Assembly: GCA_018667335.1 (NCBI GenBank)
Contig: JABIVD010000028.1
Span: 25,354 to 89,353, forward strand
DNA: 64,000 nt
Source: Rhodospirillaceae bacterium
GTDB taxonomy: Bacteria > Pseudomonadota > Alphaproteobacteria > UBA6615
Reading direction: 5' to 3'
Positions 51,882 through 60,482 of the stretch are shown here, piece after piece; the first letter of the stretch is position 1; each line of letters opens with the position of its first letter. A program made the translations under genes and the position numbers. The notes below the pieces were generated by a model. The model searched no databases, was not told where the DNA came from, and saw nothing but the letters and a program-made list of their open reading frames with translations.

Positions 51882-54800
51882 ATGAATTTGATCTCGGCGT
51901 CCATTCATCGGCCGATCGCGGTCATCGCAGTCGTCATCATGATCATCATGTTCGGCTGGGTGGCGCTGCAGCGCATTCCGATTCAGCTGGCACCCGACGT
52001 GCGCCAGCCCGTGATCATCGTCGACACCTCCTGGCCCGGCGCGTCACCGCTGGAAGTCGAGCGCGAAGTCGTCAACCGCCAGGAAGATGTCCTCAAGGGG
52101 ATCGAGGGCGTGCGCAAGATCGAGAGTCGTGCCCGCACCGGGCGCGCGGATATCACGCTCGAATTCGCGCCGAGCCAGAACATGGATCGCGCATTGTTGC
52201 TGGTGGCCAACCGGTTGGACCGGGTCAGCGGATATCCCGAGGAAACCGACGAGCCGACCCTGCGCACATCGGGCACCGACGACAATGCGATCGCCTGGTT
52301 CGTCCTGCGCCGGAAGGCGGACAACGACCGGGACCTGCTGACCTACGGGGATTTCCTCGAGGACGTGGTCCAGGAGCGGATCGAGCGCATCCCCGGGATC
52401 TCGGGGGTCAACATCTTCGGCGAAACCGAGCGCGAGATGCGGATCATCATGGATCCGGAGCAACTCGCGCAGTTCCGCCTGACCATCAGCGACGTTGTCG
52501 ACCGATTGCGCGCCGAAAACGCCTCGATCTCCGGCGGCGACGTCGAGGAAGGCAAACGCGCCTATGTGGTGCGCACCGAAGGCGATTTTACCACCACCGA
52601 ACAAGTCCTCGACGTGGTGCTGCGCTCGGACGCAGAGCTTGAGGACGGCCGGATCGGCCGAATCACAGTCCGGGATATCGCCCACGTCGAGCTTGGCTAC
52701 AAGGAAGCGCGGGCCCTGCCCCATCGGTTCGACGAGCGCGCCATGGCGTTCAACATGACCCGCGAACAGGGCGCCAACGTGCTCACGGTGATGGACGAGG
52801 TTCGTCGCGTCGTCGCCGACCTCGCGGAAGGCCCTCTCGACCGGGTGGGCCTGATCGTCGAAAATGTGTTCGATGAAACGCTGTATGTGAATTCGGCCAT
52901 CTCCCTGGTGCAACAGAACATCATTGTCGGCGGCATCCTCGCTGCCCTGGTCCTGATGCTGTTCTTGCGTTCCTGGCGCCCGACCCTGGTCGTGAGCCTT
53001 GCCATTCCGGTCTCGGTGATCGGTTCTTTCGTCGCCATGGCCGCATTGGGTCGCTCGCTCAACGTCATCAGCCTGGCAGGCATCGCCTTCGCGGTCGGCA
53101 TGGTCGTCGATGCGGCCATCGTCGTGCTCGAGAACATCTTCCGGCTCCGGCAGGAGGGCTATTCCCGCGCCGAAGCCGCCCAAATGGGCGCATCACAGGT
53201 GTGGCCCGCCGTCCTCGTCTCCTCCCTGACCACTGTCATGGTGTTTATCCCGATCTTGGTCATGGAACTCGAGGCCGGGCAGCTGTTCCGCGATATCGCG
53301 GTCGCGATCTCCGTCTCGGTGTTGCTGTCGCTGCTTGTCTCGGTGACCGTGATTCCCGCACTCGCCAACCGCTTGCTGGTGTCCAGCGCGGCCGAGGGCG
53401 GGAAGATGATGCGCATTCCTCTGCTCGATGACTTCGCGCACGGGTTCGTCACCTTCTGGCAGGATTTCACGCGCATGGTGGTCCGCTCGAAGCTACGGGC
53501 CCTCGTCGTGGTCGGCGCCATCATCCTCGCATCGGGTGCCTTCACCTGGGCGTTCGCGCCAAAGCTCGACTATCTGCCGACCGGCAACCGCAACTTTGTA
53601 TTCGGCTTCGTCAACGTGCCGCCGGGATACAATCTCAGCACCGTCACGGAGATCACCGAGCGGATCGCAAACCGGACCCGCAACCTGTGGGCATCGGAGA
53701 CCGGACCCGAATCCGAGCCCGGTGAGCCGCCCAAGTTCCAACGCTTCATTCGTGTGCCCTTCGCCGGTCGCGCCTTCATCGGCGGCACATCGGTCGACCC
53801 GGCGCGCGCCGCGGAGCTGATCCCGGTCCTGCAGAATGCGGGTCGGCAAGACCCCGGCGTTCTGACGTTCCCCAGCCAGCCGTCTTTGTTCGGACGCTCG
53901 TTAGGTAGCGGGCGAACGATCGATGTCGATATCCGCGGATCTGACCTCGAGCAGATTTACCAGGTTGCGTTCGATGTCTTTATCCGCCTGGCGCCCCGCT
54001 TCCCCTTCAGTGAAGGCAACCAGGTTCGGCCCATCCCCAGCCTGACATTGTCTGCGCCCGAGGTCAGGGTCGAGCCCAACCGCCTGAAACTCGCCGACAA
54101 CGGCCTGTCGGCACGCGCTCTTGGCCAGGCGATCGATGCCTTCAACGACGGCCTGCGGGTCGCCGAGATCACGGTCGACGGCAAACGCATCGATCTGACC
54201 CTGACAGGCACGCCCAATATCATTGACCAGACCCAGGGTATCGGCTCCCTGCCGGTCGTGACCCGTGACGGGCGCATCGTGCCGGTCGAAGGGCTCGCCG
54301 ATGTGAGAATCACGTCGGGCCCAACCGAGGTGCGGCGCGCCGATCGGGCCCGCACGGTCCGACTGCAGGTCCGGCCGAATGCCGATACGCCGCTGCAAGG
54401 CGCGTTCGAGCTGATCCGGGAAGAGATCGTGGAACCGATGCAGGAGGCCGGCCTGCCCGAGGGTGTGAGCATTCGCCTGACCGGGACGGCCGACAAGCTG
54501 TTGGAAACATGGAACGAGCTCGTTATCGATCTGCTGCTGGCAATCGTGATCGTCTATCTGGTGATGGCCGTACTGTTCGAGAGCTTTGTCTATCCGCTGA
54601 TCATTATGCTCACGGTACCCGTCGCGGCCGCCGGTGGCATCGCGGGGCTCGCGGTCCTGAACATCTGGGTTCTGCAGCCGCTGGATATGCTGACCATGCT
54701 GGGGTTCGTGATTCTGACCGGTATCGTCGTGAACAACGCGATCCTGCTGGTCCACCAGACCCTCTATCACATCCGCGAAGACGGCATGAATGCCGACGAT

Positions 54801-55064
54801 GCGATCATGCTGGCGACCCAGAACAGGGTTCGGCCGATCTTCATGTCGACGCTGACTTCGGTGTTTGGCATGTTGCCCTTGGTGGTGTCCCCCGGGGCCG
54901 GATCGGAGCTGTATCGCGGTCTGGGCTCGGTCGTGCTTGGCGGGCTGTCGTTATCGGCCGTGCTCACGTTGGCGATTGTGCCGCCAATGATGTCGATCAC
55001 GGTCGGCTGGCGCGAGCGCAAACGGGACAAGCAGCCCGACCCCAGCCCGACCCCGGCGCAATAG
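51882..55064 (+). CDS. AcrB/AcrD/AcrF family RND transporter permease
   Basis: 1060 aa; SWPGASPLEVE, AVGMVVDAAIVVLENI, GIVVNNAILLV, RVRPIFMSTLT. Confidence 0.95.
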   Translation: MNLISASIHRPIAVIAVVIMIIMFGWVALQRIPIQLAPDVRQPVIIVDTSWPGASPLEVEREVVNRQEDVLKGIEGVRKIESRARTGRADITLEFAPSQNMDRALLLVANRLDRVSGYPEETDEPTLRTSGTDDNAIAWFVLRRKADNDRDLLTYGDFLEDVVQERIERIPGISGVNIFGETEREMRIIMDPEQLAQFRLTISDVVDRLRAENASISGGDVEEGKRAYVVRTEGDFTTTEQVLDVVLRSDAELEDGRIGRITVRDIAHVELGYKEARALPHRFDERAMAFNMTREQGANVLTVMDEVRRVVADLAEGPLDRVGLIVENVFDETLYVNSAISLVQQNIIVGGILAALVLMLFLRSWRPTLVVSLAIPVSVIGSFVAMAALGRSLNVISLAGIAFAVGMVVDAAIVVLENIFRLRQEGYSRAEAAQMGASQVWPAVLVSSLTTVMVFIPILVMELEAGQLFRDIAVAISVSVLLSLLVSVTVIPALANRLLVSSAAEGGKMMRIPLLDDFAHGFVTFWQDFTRMVVRSKLRALVVVGAIILASGAFTWAFAPKLDYLPTGNRNFVFGFVNVPPGYNLSTVTEITERIANRTRNLWASETGPESEPGEPPKFQRFIRVPFAGRAFIGGTSVDPARAAELIPVLQNAGRQDPGVLTFPSQPSLFGRSLGSGRTIDVDIRGSDLEQIYQVAFDVFIRLAPRFPFSEGNQVRPIPSLTLSAPEVRVEPNRLKLADNGLSARALGQAIDAFNDGLRVAEITVDGKRIDLTLTGTPNIIDQTQGIGSLPVVTRDGRIVPVEGLADVRITSGPTEVRRADRARTVRLQVRPNADTPLQGAFELIREEIVEPMQEAGLPEGVSIRLTGTADKLLETWNELVIDLLLAIVIVYLVMAVLFESFVYPLIIMLTVPVAAAGGIAGLAVLNIWVLQPLDMLTMLGFVILTGIVVNNAILLVHQTLYHIREDGMNADDAIMLATQNRVRPIFMSTLTSVFGMLPLVVSPGAGSELYRGLGSVVLGGLSLSAVLTLAIVPPMMSITVGWRERKRDKQPDPSPTPAQ

Positions 55065-55122: not shown

Positions 55123-55821
55123 ATGACCGGACCCGGAAACACCCTCGCCGACATCCCGTTTCTCACACCGCTGGATGAGTCTGCCCGCTCTGCGCTCGAG
55201 CAGCGCGCGCGCTGGGTGCGTTACACAGCCAACGACACAATCATCGACCGCGAGACCGAATCCCGCGACGTTTACTTCGTCGTCGAAGGCCGGGTGCGGG
55301 TGGTGAACTTCTCGATTTCCGGTCGTGAGATCACCTTCGACGAGATGACGCCCGGCGGCGTCTTCGGCGAGCTTGCAGCGCTGGACGGGATGCCCCGGTC
55401 AGCCGCCGTGGTGGCCCTGAACGACACTCTCGTCGCATCCATCTCGCCCGACACGTTCGTGAACCTCTTGCGTGACCATCCCGACCTCGCCATCGGCGTA
55501 ATGCAGGAGCTCACCAAGATCGTGCGCACCGCGACCGAGCGGATCATGGACCTAAGCACGCTGGGCGCGCACAACCGGGTGCATTCCGAAATCCTGCGCG
55601 AGGCCCGCGCGCATGCGGATGGCGACGCCAACTCCGCCCGAATCTCACCAATTCCTGTCCATGCCGATATTGCCGCCCGGGTCAGCACCACGCGCGAAAC
55701 GGTTGCCCGCGTTCTGAGCGATTTGACGAAGCAGGAACTCGTCAAACGCGAGAAGGACGCTCTGGTGATTCTCGACCTGGAGCGGCTAGAGGACCTTGTC
55801 GAGGAAGTTCGCGACTTCTAA
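55123..55821 (+). CDS. Crp/Fnr family regulator of the cAMP-binding CRP type
   Basis: FGELAALDGMPRSA nucleotide pocket; recognition helix TTRETVARVL keeps the R-E-x-x-x-R residues of E. coli CRP. Confidence 0.92.
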   Translation: MTGPGNTLADIPFLTPLDESARSALEQRARWVRYTANDTIIDRETESRDVYFVVEGRVRVVNFSISGREITFDEMTPGGVFGELAALDGMPRSAAVVALNDTLVASISPDTFVNLLRDHPDLAIGVMQELTKIVRTATERIMDLSTLGAHNRVHSEILREARAHADGDANSARISPIPVHADIAARVSTTRETVARVLSDLTKQELVKREKDALVILDLERLEDLVEEVRDF

Positions 55822-55862
55822 GTCGCTGTTATTTCAACAATTCTGAATCTTTTTGAACGACC

Positions 55863-55905
55863 TGTGATGCCTGTCACTGGGGTCTGGATGGTTGCGCACT
55901 ACATT
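55863..55905 (+). promoter_or_regulatory. Crp box plus -10 hexamer (class II promoter geometry)
   Basis: TGTGA-tgcctg-TCACT (55863-55878, centre 55870.5); TACATT starts at 55900, 29.5 bp from the centre. Confidence 0.78.
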
Positions 55906-55957
55906 TGGATCAACGGCGACGGATCTTCGCCGCACACCAATGAGAACGGAGCTGAAT

Positions 55958-56047
55958 ATGTCCCGACAAACCCGCATCAACGTCGCCGCTCTCCTCCTGG
56001 CCGCACCGATGGTGCTTGTCGGATTGTCGATGACCTCTGGGTTCTAA
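55958..56047 (+). CDS. Unannotated 29-aa hydrophobic small protein MSRQTRINVAALLLAAPMVLVGLSMTSGF
   Basis: GGAG Shine-Dalgarno 7 nt upstream, basic N-terminus and one TM-length helix; below the ORF-track length cut-off. Confidence 0.55.
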   Translation: MSRQTRINVAALLLAAPMVLVGLSMTSGF

Positions 56048-56097
56048 TTTCGCTGGTGTGATCTTTTCGCACTGATCCAACCTCCTCCTCTGGACTT

Positions 56098-56133
56098 GCG
56101 GCCGGCTCTCACGAGACCGGCCGCCTTTCTTTT
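56098..56133 (+). terminator. Intrinsic terminator closing the short Crp-box transcript
   Basis: gcggccgg-ctctc-ac-gaga-ccggccgc stem followed by ctttctttt. Confidence 0.75.
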
Positions 56134-56153
56134 CAGCCCACCGTTTCGGGCAG

Positions 56154-57620
56154 TCAGAAGGTCCAGCGTCGATTGAGTCCGATCGAAAGTCGGTAATTGT
56201 TGTAGGTGTAGTTGGTGAGCGAGGAGACCTGCCGATAGGCCTCGCCACCGACCGTAAACGTGAACGGTTTCCAGAACTCGCCCACATTGGTGAAAATGCC
56301 TGACCAGGGAATGCCGTAAGTCATCCGGGCCCGCCCGCCCCAGTCATGCCGGGTTTGGGCACTGATGGAAGGATCACGGTCATCATAGAGATCATGGTTG
56401 ACGGTGAATGATGTGAGCAAAAAATCACCGCCACCAAACAACATGGTGTGGGTCATTCCGACCTCTTGCCCCTCATAGGAATTGTAGCTGCGGGCCGCGA
56501 TATTGCGGGTCAGGGTATACGTGAAGCGCAGCCGCTGATGGGGCGTCAGTATCTGCGAGGTTCCGATCTCGACCTCATAATCACGCCCGCTGCGCTCCGT
56601 GGCCGTCAAACTGCTCGTGATGTTGTTGTAGGACTGGTACTTGATGGTCCCGGTGCCAAAGACCGACCAGGTGTTGGAAAGTGCGTAAACCCAGTCGAGC
56701 GTTGCACCCACCGACGTCAGATACTTCTCGCGCGACAGATCAACGCGCTCATACAAGATACGTGGCGTGACCGTCGCCGGTGCGAAATCCAGCTCATATC
56801 CGAAATCAGCAGTGATCGCCCCCAGGTCGAGATCGTCCTGCTGAACCTGCTCACCTTGATAGAAAACCAGCCCGCCAAGCATCTTGTGCTGCTTCTGCAA
56901 GCCAAGGTCATGCTCAAAGGAAAGTTGCGCCAGCGCATTCATCGACACGTCGTCCTGGCGCGCGGAACTGCCCGTCGTTCGGGTCGGCAGATCCGCGGCG
57001 AGGCGAATTTCGGATTTCGGTGACGCGTTCCGGTTCCAGTCATACTGGGTGGCGAAATTCATCGCGAAGGTGAAGATCGTCTTCTTGCGGCGCGATGCGA
57101 TCTGATCGAGATACTGTCCGATCTGGCTCCGCAACGCGGGCTCCAGGTCCAGTTCCTGCAACGCGAGCAACTCGCGCTCCGCTTCATCGAGATTGTCGAG
57201 ACGGAACAGCACGATCGCAAACAGGACGCGGATCACCGCGAGGTCCGGTCGAATGAGCAGAACGCGTTCCAGGGTGGCCCCGGCACCGCGCACATTGCCC
57301 TCGCGAATCTGGGTCAGGGCATAGCGGACATTGAGTTCAATATTATCGGGATCTTCCAGGACCTGCTCGAAGGTTACGGGCGGGCCCTTGCTGAACGCCT
57401 CAAGGTCGAGAGCATCCTGGGCCGTGCGTTCGACGTCACGCTGGGTCTCGATCAATTCGCGGACATCGCTTTCGCGCGATTCAGTATCCGACTGCTGCGC
57501 ATGCACCGTGCTGGCAAACACGGTGGCGCCGACAATCACCATTCCATAGCGAAAACCGCATCGCGCGCACCCAAGGGCACGCACTAGAAAACTCGAGACC
57601 CGCACCAACAAAAGCCCCAA
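56154..57620 (-). CDS. Outer-membrane TPR plus beta-barrel protein (Slam/DUF560, type XI secretion-like)
   Basis: Signal peptide, TPR-like LERVLLIRPDLAVIRVLFAIVLFRLDNLDEAEREL, about 300 aa of amphipathic strands ending RRWTF; start may be 57542. Confidence 0.72.
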   Translation of the reverse strand: MGLLLVRVSSFLVRALGCARCGFRYGMVIVGATVFASTVHAQQSDTESRESDVRELIETQRDVERTAQDALDLEAFSKGPPVTFEQVLEDPDNIELNVRYALTQIREGNVRGAGATLERVLLIRPDLAVIRVLFAIVLFRLDNLDEAERELLALQELDLEPALRSQIGQYLDQIASRRKKTIFTFAMNFATQYDWNRNASPKSEIRLAADLPTRTTGSSARQDDVSMNALAQLSFEHDLGLQKQHKMLGGLVFYQGEQVQQDDLDLGAITADFGYELDFAPATVTPRILYERVDLSREKYLTSVGATLDWVYALSNTWSVFGTGTIKYQSYNNITSSLTATERSGRDYEVEIGTSQILTPHQRLRFTYTLTRNIAARSYNSYEGQEVGMTHTMLFGGGDFLLTSFTVNHDLYDDRDPSISAQTRHDWGGRARMTYGIPWSGIFTNVGEFWKPFTFTVGGEAYRQVSSLTNYTYNNYRLSIGLNRRWTF

Positions 57621-57691
57621 CGTATGGGGGTATTAAGCATGATGCAGCAAACCGGGGCAAGCGCGGGAGGCCGCTGTAACCCTTTGAGATA

Positions 57692-59953
57692 TCATTTCAT
57701 TTCTGCGACGTGAACGCCTTTCCAATCCTCCGGCGGTGGGTCGAAGGAATAGTGGTATATGCGCTCGGCGTAGAGTTCGTATAACGCCTCGAGGGTGCCA
57801 GACATCTCGGCACAGACGTTGAGCGCATCCTGCGCCCCATCCCAATCACGAACACGATATGCATTGAGCATTTTCTCGTGCTCACGCCGCAAGGCCTGAA
57901 ACTCATCGCTGGCCGCTTCATGTGCATCTCCCAGCAGCGCAAAGATACGAACGGCCTCGCGCTTACCCTTCACAGCGATCAGGTCCAGTTCGAGAAAGGC
58001 GAAGTCATCCGCCACTTCGCTCTGCGTCGATTCACCGACAATGATGGGCACCCCGTAGGGACTCGATTGCCCTTCAAGCCGTGAGGCGAGATTGACCGCG
58101 TCGCCCAGCACCGAATAATCGAACCGCTGATCGGAGCCCATGTTTCCGACGACGCACTGACCGGTGTTGAGACCAACACCGACCGCGATGGTGATCGCGT
58201 CCGGATCTTCCGCCCGGCGCTCTTCGTTGACCCGCTCCAACGCGTGCAGCATGGCCAGCGCAGCATCACACGCATGGGCCGCGTGGGCCGGATCATCGAT
58301 CGGCGCATTCCAGAACGCCATGATGCAATCGCCCATATATTTGTCGATGGTGCCGTCGCGCTCGAGAATTTCGGCGGTCAGCGGCGTCAGCAGGCGATTG
58401 ATCAATGTCGTCAGTGCCTGCGGATCATCGCGGTACCCCTCGGAGATGGATGTGAACCCGCGGATATCGCAGAACAGCAAGGTCATCTCGCGCGTTTCGC
58501 CACCCAGCCTGAGCCGCTCGGGTTGATCGGCGAGCTGTTCGACCAGGGCCGGCGACAGATACTGCCCAAAGGCTGTGCGTATCTGGCGGCGCTGAGTCTC
58601 GGACTGCAGGTATGTGATCAGCGAACTCGACAAATACACCACGAGCACCACCAGCGCCGGAAACACCGGATCGATCAGGACGCCCGCCTTCGAGAACGCA
58701 AACCAGCCGGCGGCCACCCCTGCTGTGATTGCAGCCAGGCAAACGACGGCGCTGGCGGCGACACCGAGCTTGGGCAGCAACAACACCAGGAAAACCCCCA
58801 GCAGCGCGAAGGCCGCCAATTCCGCCCCCAGCGTCCAGTCAGGCCGCGTCAGAAAACTACCGTTGAGGATTTGCTCCACAAGTTCCGCATGTACTTCGAC
58901 CCCTGGGATGATCGAATTGAGCGGCGTCGCACGCAAGTCGAACAACCCCGGCGCACTCGTCCCGACCAGTATGATCGCACCCTCGAGACCGTCATCAGCC
59001 TGGAGCGGTTCGGCATCCGACCAAAGCCGCCAGGCGGATAGATATCGCGCCGGCTCATGGCCGGTGTAACGCAGCCACACATGACCATCGCCGCTCGTAG
59101 GCACCCGCAACCGCCCGATCCGAATATCTGCAATGCCGGAGCTCTCGTCGACCCCGCCCTCGCCGCTCGCATCGGACATGCGGATATTATATCCCTGCGC
59201 GCCCTGCGCGACGCGCAACGCCTCGGCGCCCAACGTCGGATAGAGAGGCGGCAGCTTGAAGGGATCGTCATAGGTCGGTGTCGTCCCCGGCGCCACGTAC
59301 TGCGTGAACAACGGCACACGGCGGATCAGCCCATCCGCGTCGGCCTCGAAATTTATGTTGCCGATACCGGCCGCTGCCGCCCCGAGCGCCGGTAGATTGG
59401 AAATCGCAGCACTGTATGCCGGCAGAAACGGATGCGGCGGAGATCCGCCAAGCCCCACGCCGGCCTTTGGCGGGGGCGGCGGTGCATTTTCGCGGGAGCG
59501 CGTAAACGTAAATCCCGCAACCACCCGGCCGCGCGCGAATGCCTCGGCCAGCATCTGGTCATGGTCCGGCAAGGCCGCAATTCTGGCCCGCAGGTTTGCA
59601 TCGTCGGTCCCTTCAGGCCAGTTCGCCGCAACATTGGCCGGAGACGTCCGGTCCGGCTCAGCAAACAACACGTCGAACACAACAACGGCGGCGCCCGCCT
59701 CATGCAGGCGGTCCACAAGGTCTGCGATCCGCGAGCGAGGCCAGGGCCACTGCCCAATCCGCGCCAAACTTTCATCGTCGATGTCCAGAATGCGCACCGG
59801 CAACGCGCTGTCATAAACGCGCGGCTCAATCCGCTGATAGGTGTCGAACGTCCACAACCGGGCCAGTTGCACGGGTTGCGGGTCCTCAACCCGCAGCAAC
59901 AGCGCAACGACGAGGATCAGAAGTGGAACAATGCGAGCTTTCCAAGAGGTCAT
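57692..59953 (-). CDS. CHASE2-domain adenylate cyclase
   Basis: IDDESLARIGQWPWPR and FDVLFAEPDR (CHASE2), three TM, LFCDIRGFT, IDKYMGDCIMAFW, VLGDAVNLASRLE. Confidence 0.93.
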   Translation of the reverse strand: MTSWKARIVPLLILVVALLLRVEDPQPVQLARLWTFDTYQRIEPRVYDSALPVRILDIDDESLARIGQWPWPRSRIADLVDRLHEAGAAVVVFDVLFAEPDRTSPANVAANWPEGTDDANLRARIAALPDHDQMLAEAFARGRVVAGFTFTRSRENAPPPPPKAGVGLGGSPPHPFLPAYSAAISNLPALGAAAAGIGNINFEADADGLIRRVPLFTQYVAPGTTPTYDDPFKLPPLYPTLGAEALRVAQGAQGYNIRMSDASGEGGVDESSGIADIRIGRLRVPTSGDGHVWLRYTGHEPARYLSAWRLWSDAEPLQADDGLEGAIILVGTSAPGLFDLRATPLNSIIPGVEVHAELVEQILNGSFLTRPDWTLGAELAAFALLGVFLVLLLPKLGVAASAVVCLAAITAGVAAGWFAFSKAGVLIDPVFPALVVLVVYLSSSLITYLQSETQRRQIRTAFGQYLSPALVEQLADQPERLRLGGETREMTLLFCDIRGFTSISEGYRDDPQALTTLINRLLTPLTAEILERDGTIDKYMGDCIMAFWNAPIDDPAHAAHACDAALAMLHALERVNEERRAEDPDAITIAVGVGLNTGQCVVGNMGSDQRFDYSVLGDAVNLASRLEGQSSPYGVPIIVGESTQSEVADDFAFLELDLIAVKGKREAVRIFALLGDAHEAASDEFQALRREHEKMLNAYRVRDWDGAQDALNVCAEMSGTLEALYELYAERIYHYSFDPPPEDWKGVHVAEMK

Positions 59954-60005
59954 GCCAGCAATCTAGCCCAGTGCGCGATTCCGGAGAAAGCCGGTGCATG
60001 CCCGG

Positions 60006-60158
60006 CTAGAGCGTAACGGCCGCAACCGAGATCGTTCCCAGGATCAGGAACGAGACGATGACCCACTGGAGATAGAGGCGCAGCACGAACCTGCTGGCGT
60101 GACGGCCTGCAAATCGATGCAGCGTCAAATGATGCGAATGGGCGGGTCGGGGCGTCAT
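60006..60158 (-). CDS. Unannotated 50-aa small membrane protein MTPRPAHSHHLTLHRFAGRHASRFVLRLYLQWVIVSFLILGTISVAAVTL
   Basis: ATG at 60158, His/Arg-rich N-terminus and a C-terminal TM helix; ends 53 nt before the cyclase start. Confidence 0.5.
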   Translation of the reverse strand: MTPRPAHSHHLTLHRFAGRHASRFVLRLYLQWVIVSFLILGTISVAAVTL

Positions 60159-60221
60159 GGTCTCGTCGTCCGGTAGCAGATGATATCTGCCACCAAGGTG
60201 CACCGCCCTGCGCGGCCTGTC

Positions 60222-60252
60222 TGTGACATCCATCACTGTGACCCCCGTCACT
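60222..60252. promoter_or_regulatory. Two abutting Crp boxes in a divergent promoter
   Basis: TGTGA-catcca-TCACT (60222-60237) and TGTGA-cccccg-TCACT (60237-60252); TAGGTT at 60274 is 29.5 bp from the second centre. Confidence 0.8.
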
Positions 60253-60304
60253 TCCAACGACGTCGATCGTCGCTAGGTTCAGGGCACAACAAATGATGGA
60301 GAAC

Positions 60305-60430
60305 ATGATGATCGACACGCAACACAACGCCCGAACGCTAATCAGACACGGCAGCCTGATCATAACAGGCTTGGTCACAGGTGGACTGGGTGCGGCGCTC
60401 CTGGTCCTGCTGGCTGCAGCCACAGGCTGA
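60305..60430 (+). CDS. Unannotated 41-aa small membrane protein MMIDTQHNARTLIRHGSLIITGLVTGGLGAALLVLLAAATG
   Basis: GGAG Shine-Dalgarno immediately upstream (second ATG optimally spaced); one Gly-rich TM helix. Confidence 0.55.
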   Translation: MMIDTQHNARTLIRHGSLIITGLVTGGLGAALLVLLAAATG

Positions 60431-60482
60431 CCGACAACGGAACGTCTTTTCCTCGCGAACTGAACAACTTAGGATGCCCGCC

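Follow-up and report, generated by a model that had tools for sequence, protein, structure and literature searches.

What do three very short open reading frames (ORFs) encode when each is the first to follow a Crp-type box? The question is raised by a stretch of contig JABIVD010000028.1 from a Rhodospirillaceae bacterium, which is referred to here as the window at its full length of 64,000 nucleotides (nt). A preliminary description, made from the sequence alone, had pointed out the three ORFs, which we designate sORF1, sORF2, and sORF3. In the window and in all lineages compared with it, the genes follow one order: RND permease, crp, box, sORF1, outer-membrane protein (OMP), CHASE2 cyclase, sORF2, tandem boxes, sORF3, and FecR-domain gene. 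In this study, the ORFs were compared with their relatives and with marine RNA. We consider it probable, at roughly 60%, that they are genuine genes for small inner-membrane proteins driven by cyclic AMP (cAMP) and Crp, which would act through helix contacts, with sORF2 and the cyclase forming a feedback.

sORF1 lies at 55958-56047 on the plus strand and would encode a peptide of 29 amino acids (aa) with a single transmembrane (TM) segment (MSRQTRINVAALLLAAPMVLVGLSMTSGF). sORF2, at 60006-60158 on the minus strand, leads the cyclase operon and would encode 50 aa ending in a C-terminal TM helix (MTPRPAHSHHLTLHRFAGRHASRFVLRLYLQWVIVSFLILGTISVAAVTL). sORF3, at 60305-60430 on the plus strand, leads the operon of the FecR-domain gene and would encode a single-TM peptide of 41 aa, or of 40 aa if translation starts, as is likelier, at 60308 (MMIDTQHNARTLIRHGSLIITGLVTGGLGAALLVLLAAATG). 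As the preliminary description had stated, the N-terminus of all three is polar or basic and each has one hydrophobic segment, which lies towards the C-terminus. Hydropathy on the Kyte-Doolittle scale peaked at means of 2.15-2.35 over 19 residues, and the net charge ahead of the helix was +2 for sORF1, +5 for sORF2, and +1 for sORF3. With no more than 50 codons and one predicted membrane-spanning hydrophobic helix, all three have the size and shape of small membrane proteins. The AlphaFold2 model of sORF2 is a single helix over residues 9-49, with a predicted local distance difference test score of 87-95 over residues 21-50. Comparison of the three peptides with each other found no sequence similarity, again as described earlier.

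The ribosome-binding sites proposed earlier for the two plus-strand ORFs were located. GGAG stands at 55948-55951, 6 nt ahead of the sORF1 ATG, and at 60298-60301, 3 nt before the ATG at 60305 and 6 nt before the ATG at 60308. In one lineage (L169), the first of these two adjacent ATGs is ATT, and GGAG with a 6-nt gap to the second was kept in 8/8 lineages. The sequence evidence thus makes the ATG at 60308 the most likely start of sORF3, giving 40 aa. The earlier lengths of 29 and 50 aa for sORF1 and sORF2 stand, and that of 41 aa for sORF3 probably has to be shortened by one residue. Longer forms were rejected for each ORF. A start of sORF3 at ATG 60293 or 60296 is excluded by L164, which has neither ATG. 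Extended forms of sORF2 with 83 or 75 aa meet a stop codon in L001, and the extension would also overlap the boxes. A 51-aa form of sORF1 from TTG 55892 is broken by a 1-nt insertion or deletion (indel) in relatives. The earlier view that the ORFs are unannotated does not hold generally, as gene callers call all three on related public contigs, with lengths of 29, 31, 40-46, and 50-99 aa.

The DNA here has a GC content of 63%, and the 12 kb surrounding the locus contain 137 ORFs of at least 25 aa. Since chance ORFs of this size are common in such DNA, the case depends on comparison and RNA rather than on the presence of the ORFs. Relatives were gathered through loci of cyclase homologues in genomes and metagenomes, protein look-ups, and exact-sequence contig look-ups. 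Their cyclases are 72-92% identical to that of the window. sORF1 was compared in five lineages (window, L024, L161, L164, and L116/L174), and sORF2 and sORF3 in eight (window, L001, L161, L164, L168, L169, L171, and L174). Additional protein clusters of sORF2 were P0004 (TARA), P0006, and P0007. sORF1 was open in 5/5 lineages, sORF2 and sORF3 were open in 8/8, and both length and TM character were maintained in every lineage. All indels within the ORFs were multiples of three: sORF1 is 6 nt longer in L116/L174, sORF2 is 12 nt shorter in L171 and 3 nt shorter in L174 with no other indels, and sORF3 differs by ±3 nt at its ends only. The adjacent non-coding DNA carries indels of 1, 11, and 13 nt. 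The stop codon of sORF1 varies among TAA, TGA, and TAG at a fixed position. GGAG was kept at fixed spacing before sORF1 in 4/5 lineages and, by one of two counts, before sORF3 in 7/8 rather than 8/8.

We then asked how the substitutions fall within the frames. The ratio of nonsynonymous to synonymous substitution rates (dN/dS) was calculated pairwise by the Nei-Gojobori method, with the main ranges taken from the four closest lineages. In these, dN/dS was 0.08-0.24 for sORF1, 0.17-0.42 for sORF2, and 0.14-0.34 for sORF3, and the synonymous excess was significant for nearly all pairs in the proposed frame. Over eight lineages, the median was 0.32 for both sORF2 (range 0.17-0.64) and sORF3 (range 0.12-0.84). 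Over all lineages, the medians of the three ORFs were 0.22-0.32, and each pair was below 1. The variable sites at codon positions 1/2/3 numbered 6/0/13 in sORF1, 26/17/37 in sORF2, and 16/9/30 in sORF3 (four closest lineages). A six-frame test gave the proposed frame the lowest dN/dS and zero stops in 9/9 pairs. Most alternative frames showed dN/dS of about 1 or above, or contained stops. The antisense frame that shares third codon positions was a partial exception, with dN/dS of 0.23-0.70 and occasional nominal significance. GC at codon positions 1/2/3 was 0.59-0.63, 0.46-0.48, and 0.66-0.72, as in real genes here. Neighbouring genes have dN/dS of 0.05-0.14, and sORF1 is similarly constrained.

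Specific residues are conserved as well. In sORF2, an MT..P start, a central W, SF, and G are retained, and 20 of the 50 columns are identical in the four closest lineages; sORF3 shows a pattern of the GHG...TGG...AA type. Each of the two also has a conserved motif of small residues, SF(L/V)xLGxxS in sORF2 and TGGLGAA in sORF3. Conservation and dN/dS in relatives had been named as a check in the preliminary description, and the ORFs passed it, with frames kept in 5-8 lineages and dN/dS of 0.08-0.42 among the closest. These comparisons of sequence indicate that the proposed frames are under purifying selection and that the ORFs are real protein-coding genes.

RNA of the locus was sought in marine and seawater metatranscriptome contigs with at least 99% identity, which came from at least 10 runs in several studies. 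Contigs of sORF1 started at 55918-55921 in five runs, and in one of them (X11) adapter sequence stood directly ahead of 55920. They ended at 56088-56137 or extended beyond. The resulting transcript of about 215 nt covers 55918-56135, with the plus strand inferred. An intrinsic terminator was read from the sequence at 56098-56134 on the plus strand, with the stem GCGGCCGGCTC/GAGACCGGCCGC followed by a T-run; the X11 contig ends at 56137. The terminator stem is unvarying in five lineages. Contigs of sORF2 ended at 60165 in three runs or at 60168, and ran unbroken from 60165 to 59865 through the spacer into the cyclase gene. Contigs of sORF3 started at 60297-60308 and extended into the FecR-domain gene, one of them (X1) being 2003 nt long. 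No contig covered 55822-55917 or the box region at 60169-60296. These results support a division into three transcription units, in each of which the RNA begins a short way downstream of a box and the small ORF is the first cistron. They directly support a monocistronic, terminator-bounded sORF1 RNA of about 215 nt beside crp, and the co-transcription of sORF2 with the CHASE2 cyclase and of sORF3 with the secreted FecR-domain gene.

Next, the boxes were examined. The Crp-type box upstream of sORF1, TGTGATGCCTGTCACT, lies at 55863-55878 and matches TGTGA-N6-TCAC exactly. Two abutting boxes, TGTGACATCCATCAC-TGTGACCCCCGTCACT, lie at 60222-60252 between the divergent sORF2 and sORF3 and are also exact matches. 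In the 64 kb, exact TGTGA-N6-TCAC occurs solely at 55863, 60222, and 60237, which is 3 against 0.37 expected, and 2 of 100 shuffles reached three boxes. No further box appeared in the 64 kb when one mismatch was permitted. The ORF listing, the exact boxes, and the RNA contigs together confirmed the earlier placement of the three ORFs, at the coordinates given above, as the first ORFs after three Crp boxes. The half-sites of the sORF1 box are unvarying with a variable spacer in five lineages, and those of the tandem boxes are unvarying with variable spacers in the four aligned lineages. Both tandem boxes are present in 8/8 lineages; in the most distant, one box has AGTGA for TGTGA. The distance from box centre to ATG is 86-87 nt for sORF1 in 5/5 lineages, 70-74 nt for sORF2 from the proximal box, and 60-63 nt for sORF3, with 70 nt in one lineage.

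The boxes lie upstream of the core promoters, which is compatible with predicted activation. The tandem box centres stand 15 bp apart between the divergent promoters, and thus on roughly opposite faces of the helix. Each tandem box may serve one direction, and the RNA ends leave the promoter classes unfixed. The regulator encoded beside the first box (55123-55821, plus strand; 232 aa) matches the Pfam families cNMP_binding (1.3e-21) and HTH_Crp_2 (5.7e-12). Its translation contains FGELAAL...RSAAV, with the GE...RSA cAMP-binding motif, and TRETVARVL, with the RETVAR recognition motif. We take these to correspond to the cAMP-contact and TGTGA-recognition residues of E. coli CRP. The locus thus shows both features of a CRP-type regulon, namely a conserved palindrome upstream of the core promoter and a regulator with the cAMP-contact residues and an R-E-x-x-x-R helix.

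From these data, a mechanism can be proposed. The neighbouring Crp, loaded with the cAMP produced by the cyclase, would bind the boxes and activate the three promoters. The peptides are predicted to enter the inner membrane in an N-in orientation, each with a short cytoplasmic N-terminus and one C-terminal TM helix. This topology rests on hydropathy and the charge before the helix, and, for sORF2, on the single helix of the AlphaFold2 model. In the membrane, they may act through helix-helix contacts with larger membrane proteins, and the conserved small-residue motifs of sORF2 and sORF3 fit such packing. The most likely partner of sORF2 is the TM region of the cyclase, since sORF2 invariably leads the cyclase operon, and this pairing would feed back on cAMP in the manner of MgrB-PhoQ. 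sORF1 would be a Crp output independent of this cyclase, and its RNA may base-pair too. sORF1 appears to belong with crp and the RND operon, not with the cyclase, as it survives in two relatives (L173 and L175) after an insertion sequence (IS) element has removed much of the locus. The role suggested in the preliminary description, namely modulation of the cyclase or the RND pump by peptides whose synthesis cAMP induces, is plausible by analogy. A more specific version casts sORF2 as a single-helix subunit dedicated to regulating the CHASE2 cyclase, with its synthesis driven in a feedback by cAMP-Crp from the shared tandem boxes, and lets sORF3 and a dual-function sORF1 RNA complete a three-peptide output layer; this version seems doubtful to us at present.

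Several observations weigh against small membrane proteins with this role. sORF2 has no canonical Shine-Dalgarno sequence, the sequence ahead of its ATG being CCGGACGACGAGACC. The dN/dS values of sORF2 and sORF3 are 2-4 times those of neighbouring genes, and a low dN/dS could stem from a constraint on hydrophobic composition alone. The distances from box to transcription start site, taken from the RNA ends, are at least 47, 52, and 61 nt and do not all suit one classical CRP promoter class. The RNA contigs are strandless with approximate ends, and their depth reflects expression poorly, which applies to the depths of 6-43 for sORF1 against 0-4.6 for crp and of 29-590 for sORF3/FecR contigs against 2-8 for the cyclase. 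The peptides are absent from about 150 distant CHASE2-cyclase loci, which makes them dispensable for cyclase function generally. Finally, the sORF1 3' region at 56048-56134 is conserved above the coding sequence in five lineages, so that function may reside chiefly in the RNA itself.

This last point leads to the alternative that survives best, namely that the sORF1 transcript is mainly regulatory, either as a base-pairing small RNA (sRNA) or as a dual-function RNA, with its conserved CCUCCUCC 3' part directed at the ribosome-binding sites of mRNAs and the peptide secondary. We regard this as possible and would give it clearly less than an even chance. The 3' untranslated region (UTR) at 56048-56097 on the plus strand, defined by the five-lineage comparison, contains TTTCGCACTGATCCAACCTCC (CCTCCTCCTC at 56081-56090), and CCUCCUCC resembles an anti-Shine-Dalgarno motif. 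The transcript is discrete and abundant, and as a discrete small transcript encoding a small protein it has the form of a dual-function sRNA. The whole RNA folds better than its shuffles (z = -3.2). A predicted long-range helix encloses the ribosome site and the ORF: CACACCA in the leader (55932-55938) can pair with TGGTGTG just past the stop codon (56054-56060), so that the whole ORF is enclosed. In L161 and L164, both sides of the helix change together, from CACACC/GGTGTG to CGCACC/GGTGCG, as judged by eye. The pairing suggests a conserved long-range helix that could gate sORF1 translation. On the other side, the coding frame of sORF1 is the tightest of the three, with zero second-position changes in four lineages. 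Its dN/dS, its in-frame 6-nt insertion, and its conserved ribosome site exclude a purely non-coding reading. No Rfam match was found in 55700-60600 at E up to 1, and when the sORF1 3' UTR was scanned for RNA duplexes with the initiation regions of neighbouring genes, no pairing was better than those of shuffled sequences.

CRP-linked dual-function RNAs have precedents in AzuCR, which has 164 nt and encodes the 28-aa AzuC (PMC8915982), in Spot 42/SpfP (PMC8916003), and in VcdRP, which encodes the 29-aa VcdP (PMC8672173). In the Rhodobacter CcaF1-CcsR system, a small ORF is followed by 3'-UTR sRNAs with CCUCCUCCC (PMC8034643). The sORF1 RNA resembles these systems in its 29-aa ORF, its discrete transcript, its upstream Crp-type box, and its conserved CCUCCUCC 3' part. 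However, sORF1 is predicted to encode a TM peptide, in contrast to the amphipathic AzuC and to CcaF1, a soluble DUF1127 protein that binds RNA.

sORF2 and sORF3 could instead be leader ORFs, in which translation rather than the peptide tunes the cyclase and FecR-domain genes, by coupling or by unfolding of the mRNA. Each lies immediately upstream of a large gene with which it shares an RNA contig, and the gaps are short (50-63 nt), as are the leaders. An unvarying 14-mer stands just 5' of the cyclase start codon, and dN/dS is looser in these two ORFs than in the neighbouring genes. Yet the selection acts at the level of amino acids, with dN/dS in the proposed frame well below 1, and specific residues of sORF2 and sORF3 are conserved across lineages. 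Length and TM character are likewise retained in all lineages, and with 50-63 nt between the genes, direct termination-reinitiation coupling would have to bridge a long gap. We consider leader ORFs an unlikely account of the two.

It is much less likely still that one or more of the peptides is a membrane-damaging toxin of the type I kind, restrained by mRNA structure or antisense RNA. Their small size, comparable to that of TisB or Hok, and their hydrophobicity would fit, and the predicted long-range helix around the sORF1 ribosome site and ORF recalls the fold-back inhibition of hok mRNA. However, all lineages keep the synteny with signalling genes, natural samples contain the RNAs at high levels, neither an antisense promoter nor antisense RNA was seen, and sORF2 and sORF3 lie within operons of large genes, which sets them apart from known type I loci. 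The least credible explanation is that the frames are open by chance in GC-rich regulatory DNA and that only DNA or RNA signals account for the conservation: ORFs of at least 25 aa are as abundant here as stated above, and the +2 frame is open too in all lineages, but substitutions are enriched at third codon positions, dN/dS stays under 1 and reaches its minimum in the proposed frame with only the antisense frame sharing third positions near it, indels are in frame only, and start and stop positions are kept even as the identity of the stop codon changes.

We also examined whether the peptides belong to known families. No match was found in Pfam or NCBIfam at E up to 10, except for two sub-threshold matches of sORF1 variants to DUF families (E = 0.06-0.13), and a sequence search of the PDB found no match for any of the three. 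Model matches to AcrZ, MgrB, KdpF, and other named small-protein families were sought, and none was found. On this sequence evidence, the peptides appear to form three small-protein families without known relatives, of a known general kind. A profile of sORF2 recovered six clusters only among 1.84 billion representative proteins. In each cluster with readable context, sORF2 precedes a cyclase and lies opposite a homologue of sORF3. Hidden Markov models of the three families were then run on the six-frame ORFs of 163 loci. Matches were confined to the close clade, with none at about 150 loci whose cyclases are 41-54% identical. The FecR/OMP/cyclase trio recurs at many of about 160 loci. The three genes are confined to one clade of uncultured marine Rhodospirillaceae-like alphaproteobacteria, and the lack of matches at the distant loci makes the peptides clade-specific additions to a widespread module. 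They accompany the clade's own arrangement, in which the adjacent crp and the boxes are present.

Feedback by a small protein on a membrane sensor is exemplified by MgrB-PhoQ and SafA-PhoQ in E. coli and Salmonella, and the MgrB gene is under the output regulator of its pathway. The case here is similar in that single-TM proteins of at most 50 aa, with genes predicted to be under the pathway regulator, are proposed to act on the membrane sensor of the pathway. The differences are several. MgrB has a periplasmic tail with Cys, whereas in sORF2 the TM helix closes the chain and the basic N-terminus is predicted to be cytoplasmic. PhoQ is a histidine kinase, whereas the sensor at this locus is a CHASE2 cyclase. 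Unlike MgrB, to which it has no sequence similarity, sORF2 is co-transcribed with its presumed target.

AcrZ-AcrB and KdpF-KdpABC are examples of small accessory subunits, and KdpF, with 29 aa, is encoded by the first gene of its operon. The peptides studied here share with these the small size, the single TM helix, and co-regulation or co-transcription with a large membrane complex, and sORF2 and sORF3 are first genes like that of KdpF. However, they have no sequence similarity to AcrZ or KdpF, and sORF1 stands behind crp rather than the pump genes, with a promoter and a terminator of its own. Its link to the RND pump is adjacency only, which is conserved among relatives. The AcrZ/MgrB analogy drawn in the preliminary description holds for the architecture, small and single-TM, and not for the sequence, for which Pfam and NCBIfam gave no similarity. 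Given the lack of a match to named families, the likeness to AcrZ, MgrB, and KdpF is architectural only.

The large genes of the locus have counterparts in the cAMP cascade of Sinorhizobium meliloti, with the CHASE2 cyclases CyaD1, CyaD2, and CyaK, the outer-membrane protein NsrA, and the Crp-like regulator Clr (PMC5498481, PMC7529298, PMC13001267). Clr activates cyclase-adjacent genes, including that of the FecR-domain protein SMc02177 (PMC5498481, PMC7529298, PMC13001267). Both systems have a CHASE2 cyclase, a Crp-family regulator, a FecR-domain gene with a box, and an OMP barrel, the barrel here being represented by sub-threshold matches. However, the Clr box is TGTT-N8-AACA or a relaxed form of it, whereas the box here is TGTGA-N6-TCAC, and the gene order differs. 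These three publications on the cascade describe no small membrane proteins (PMC5498481, PMC7529298, PMC13001267). The host here is a free-living marine bacterium, unlike S. meliloti.

The control of CHASE2 receptor cyclases is poorly understood, and the step from OMP to cyclase is unknown even in S. meliloti, the case studied best. A conserved 50-aa membrane protein that heads the cyclase operon behind sites for the pathway regulator is a concrete candidate modulator. If the proposal is true, no small-protein regulator of a CHASE2 receptor would have been described before sORF2, and the three-peptide output layer would be the addition of one clade to a widespread FecR/OMP/CHASE2 envelope-sensing module. 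sORF1 would provide a possible Crp-dependent dual-function RNA in an alphaproteobacterium. The locus also illustrates that tiny ORFs of GC-rich genomes can be validated using metagenomic relatives alone.

Some relatives have lost or rearranged parts of the locus. In L173 and L175 (11002-12131), an IS element with HTH_Tnp_1 and rve domains takes the place of the CHASE2 half of the cyclase, sORF2, the boxes, and sORF3. Despite this element, both retain crp, its box, and an identical sORF1. In L001 (6831-6953), the equivalent of 55721-58123 of the window is absent, including the 3' end of crp, sORF1, the OMP gene, and the 3' end of the cyclase gene. In L024, collinearity is lost before 4999, past position 58902 of the window. 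The decay or rearrangement in these four may be an assembly artefact of metagenome-assembled genomes.

The large genes of the locus were assigned as follows. The RND permease gene is located at 51882-55064 on the plus strand, according to the ORF listing and Pfam. The OMP gene at 56154-57620 on the minus strand encodes a TPR plus beta-barrel protein, with a Pfam match to TPR_19 (2.2e-8) and weak matches below cut-offs to SlipAM and OMP_b-brl. The class III adenylate/guanylate cyclase gene at 57692-59953 on the minus strand encodes 753 aa with the Pfam domains CHASE2 (4.7e-61) and Guanylate_cyc (4.1e-22). The gene for the secreted FecR-domain protein of 536 aa lies at 60483-62093 on the plus strand (Pfam FecR, 5.6e-11), on the same RNA contig as sORF3. 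In the catalytic domain of the cyclase, metatranscriptome contigs from other organisms match only the 51 nt at 58305-58355 and diverge on both sides; this match is a coding motif conserved across taxa and is not specific to the locus. The 14-nt element before the cyclase gene occupies 59959-59972 (minus strand CTGGGCTAGATTGC), only some bases 5' of the start codon, and shows no evident Shine-Dalgarno sequence. CTGGGCTAGATTGC was retained without variation in every lineage checked, including the lineage with 72% cyclase identity (L174). In this 72% lineage (L172 and L174; about 11956-15626), the FecR-domain gene is tandemly duplicated downstream of the sORF3 homologue, with products of 491 and 515 aa.

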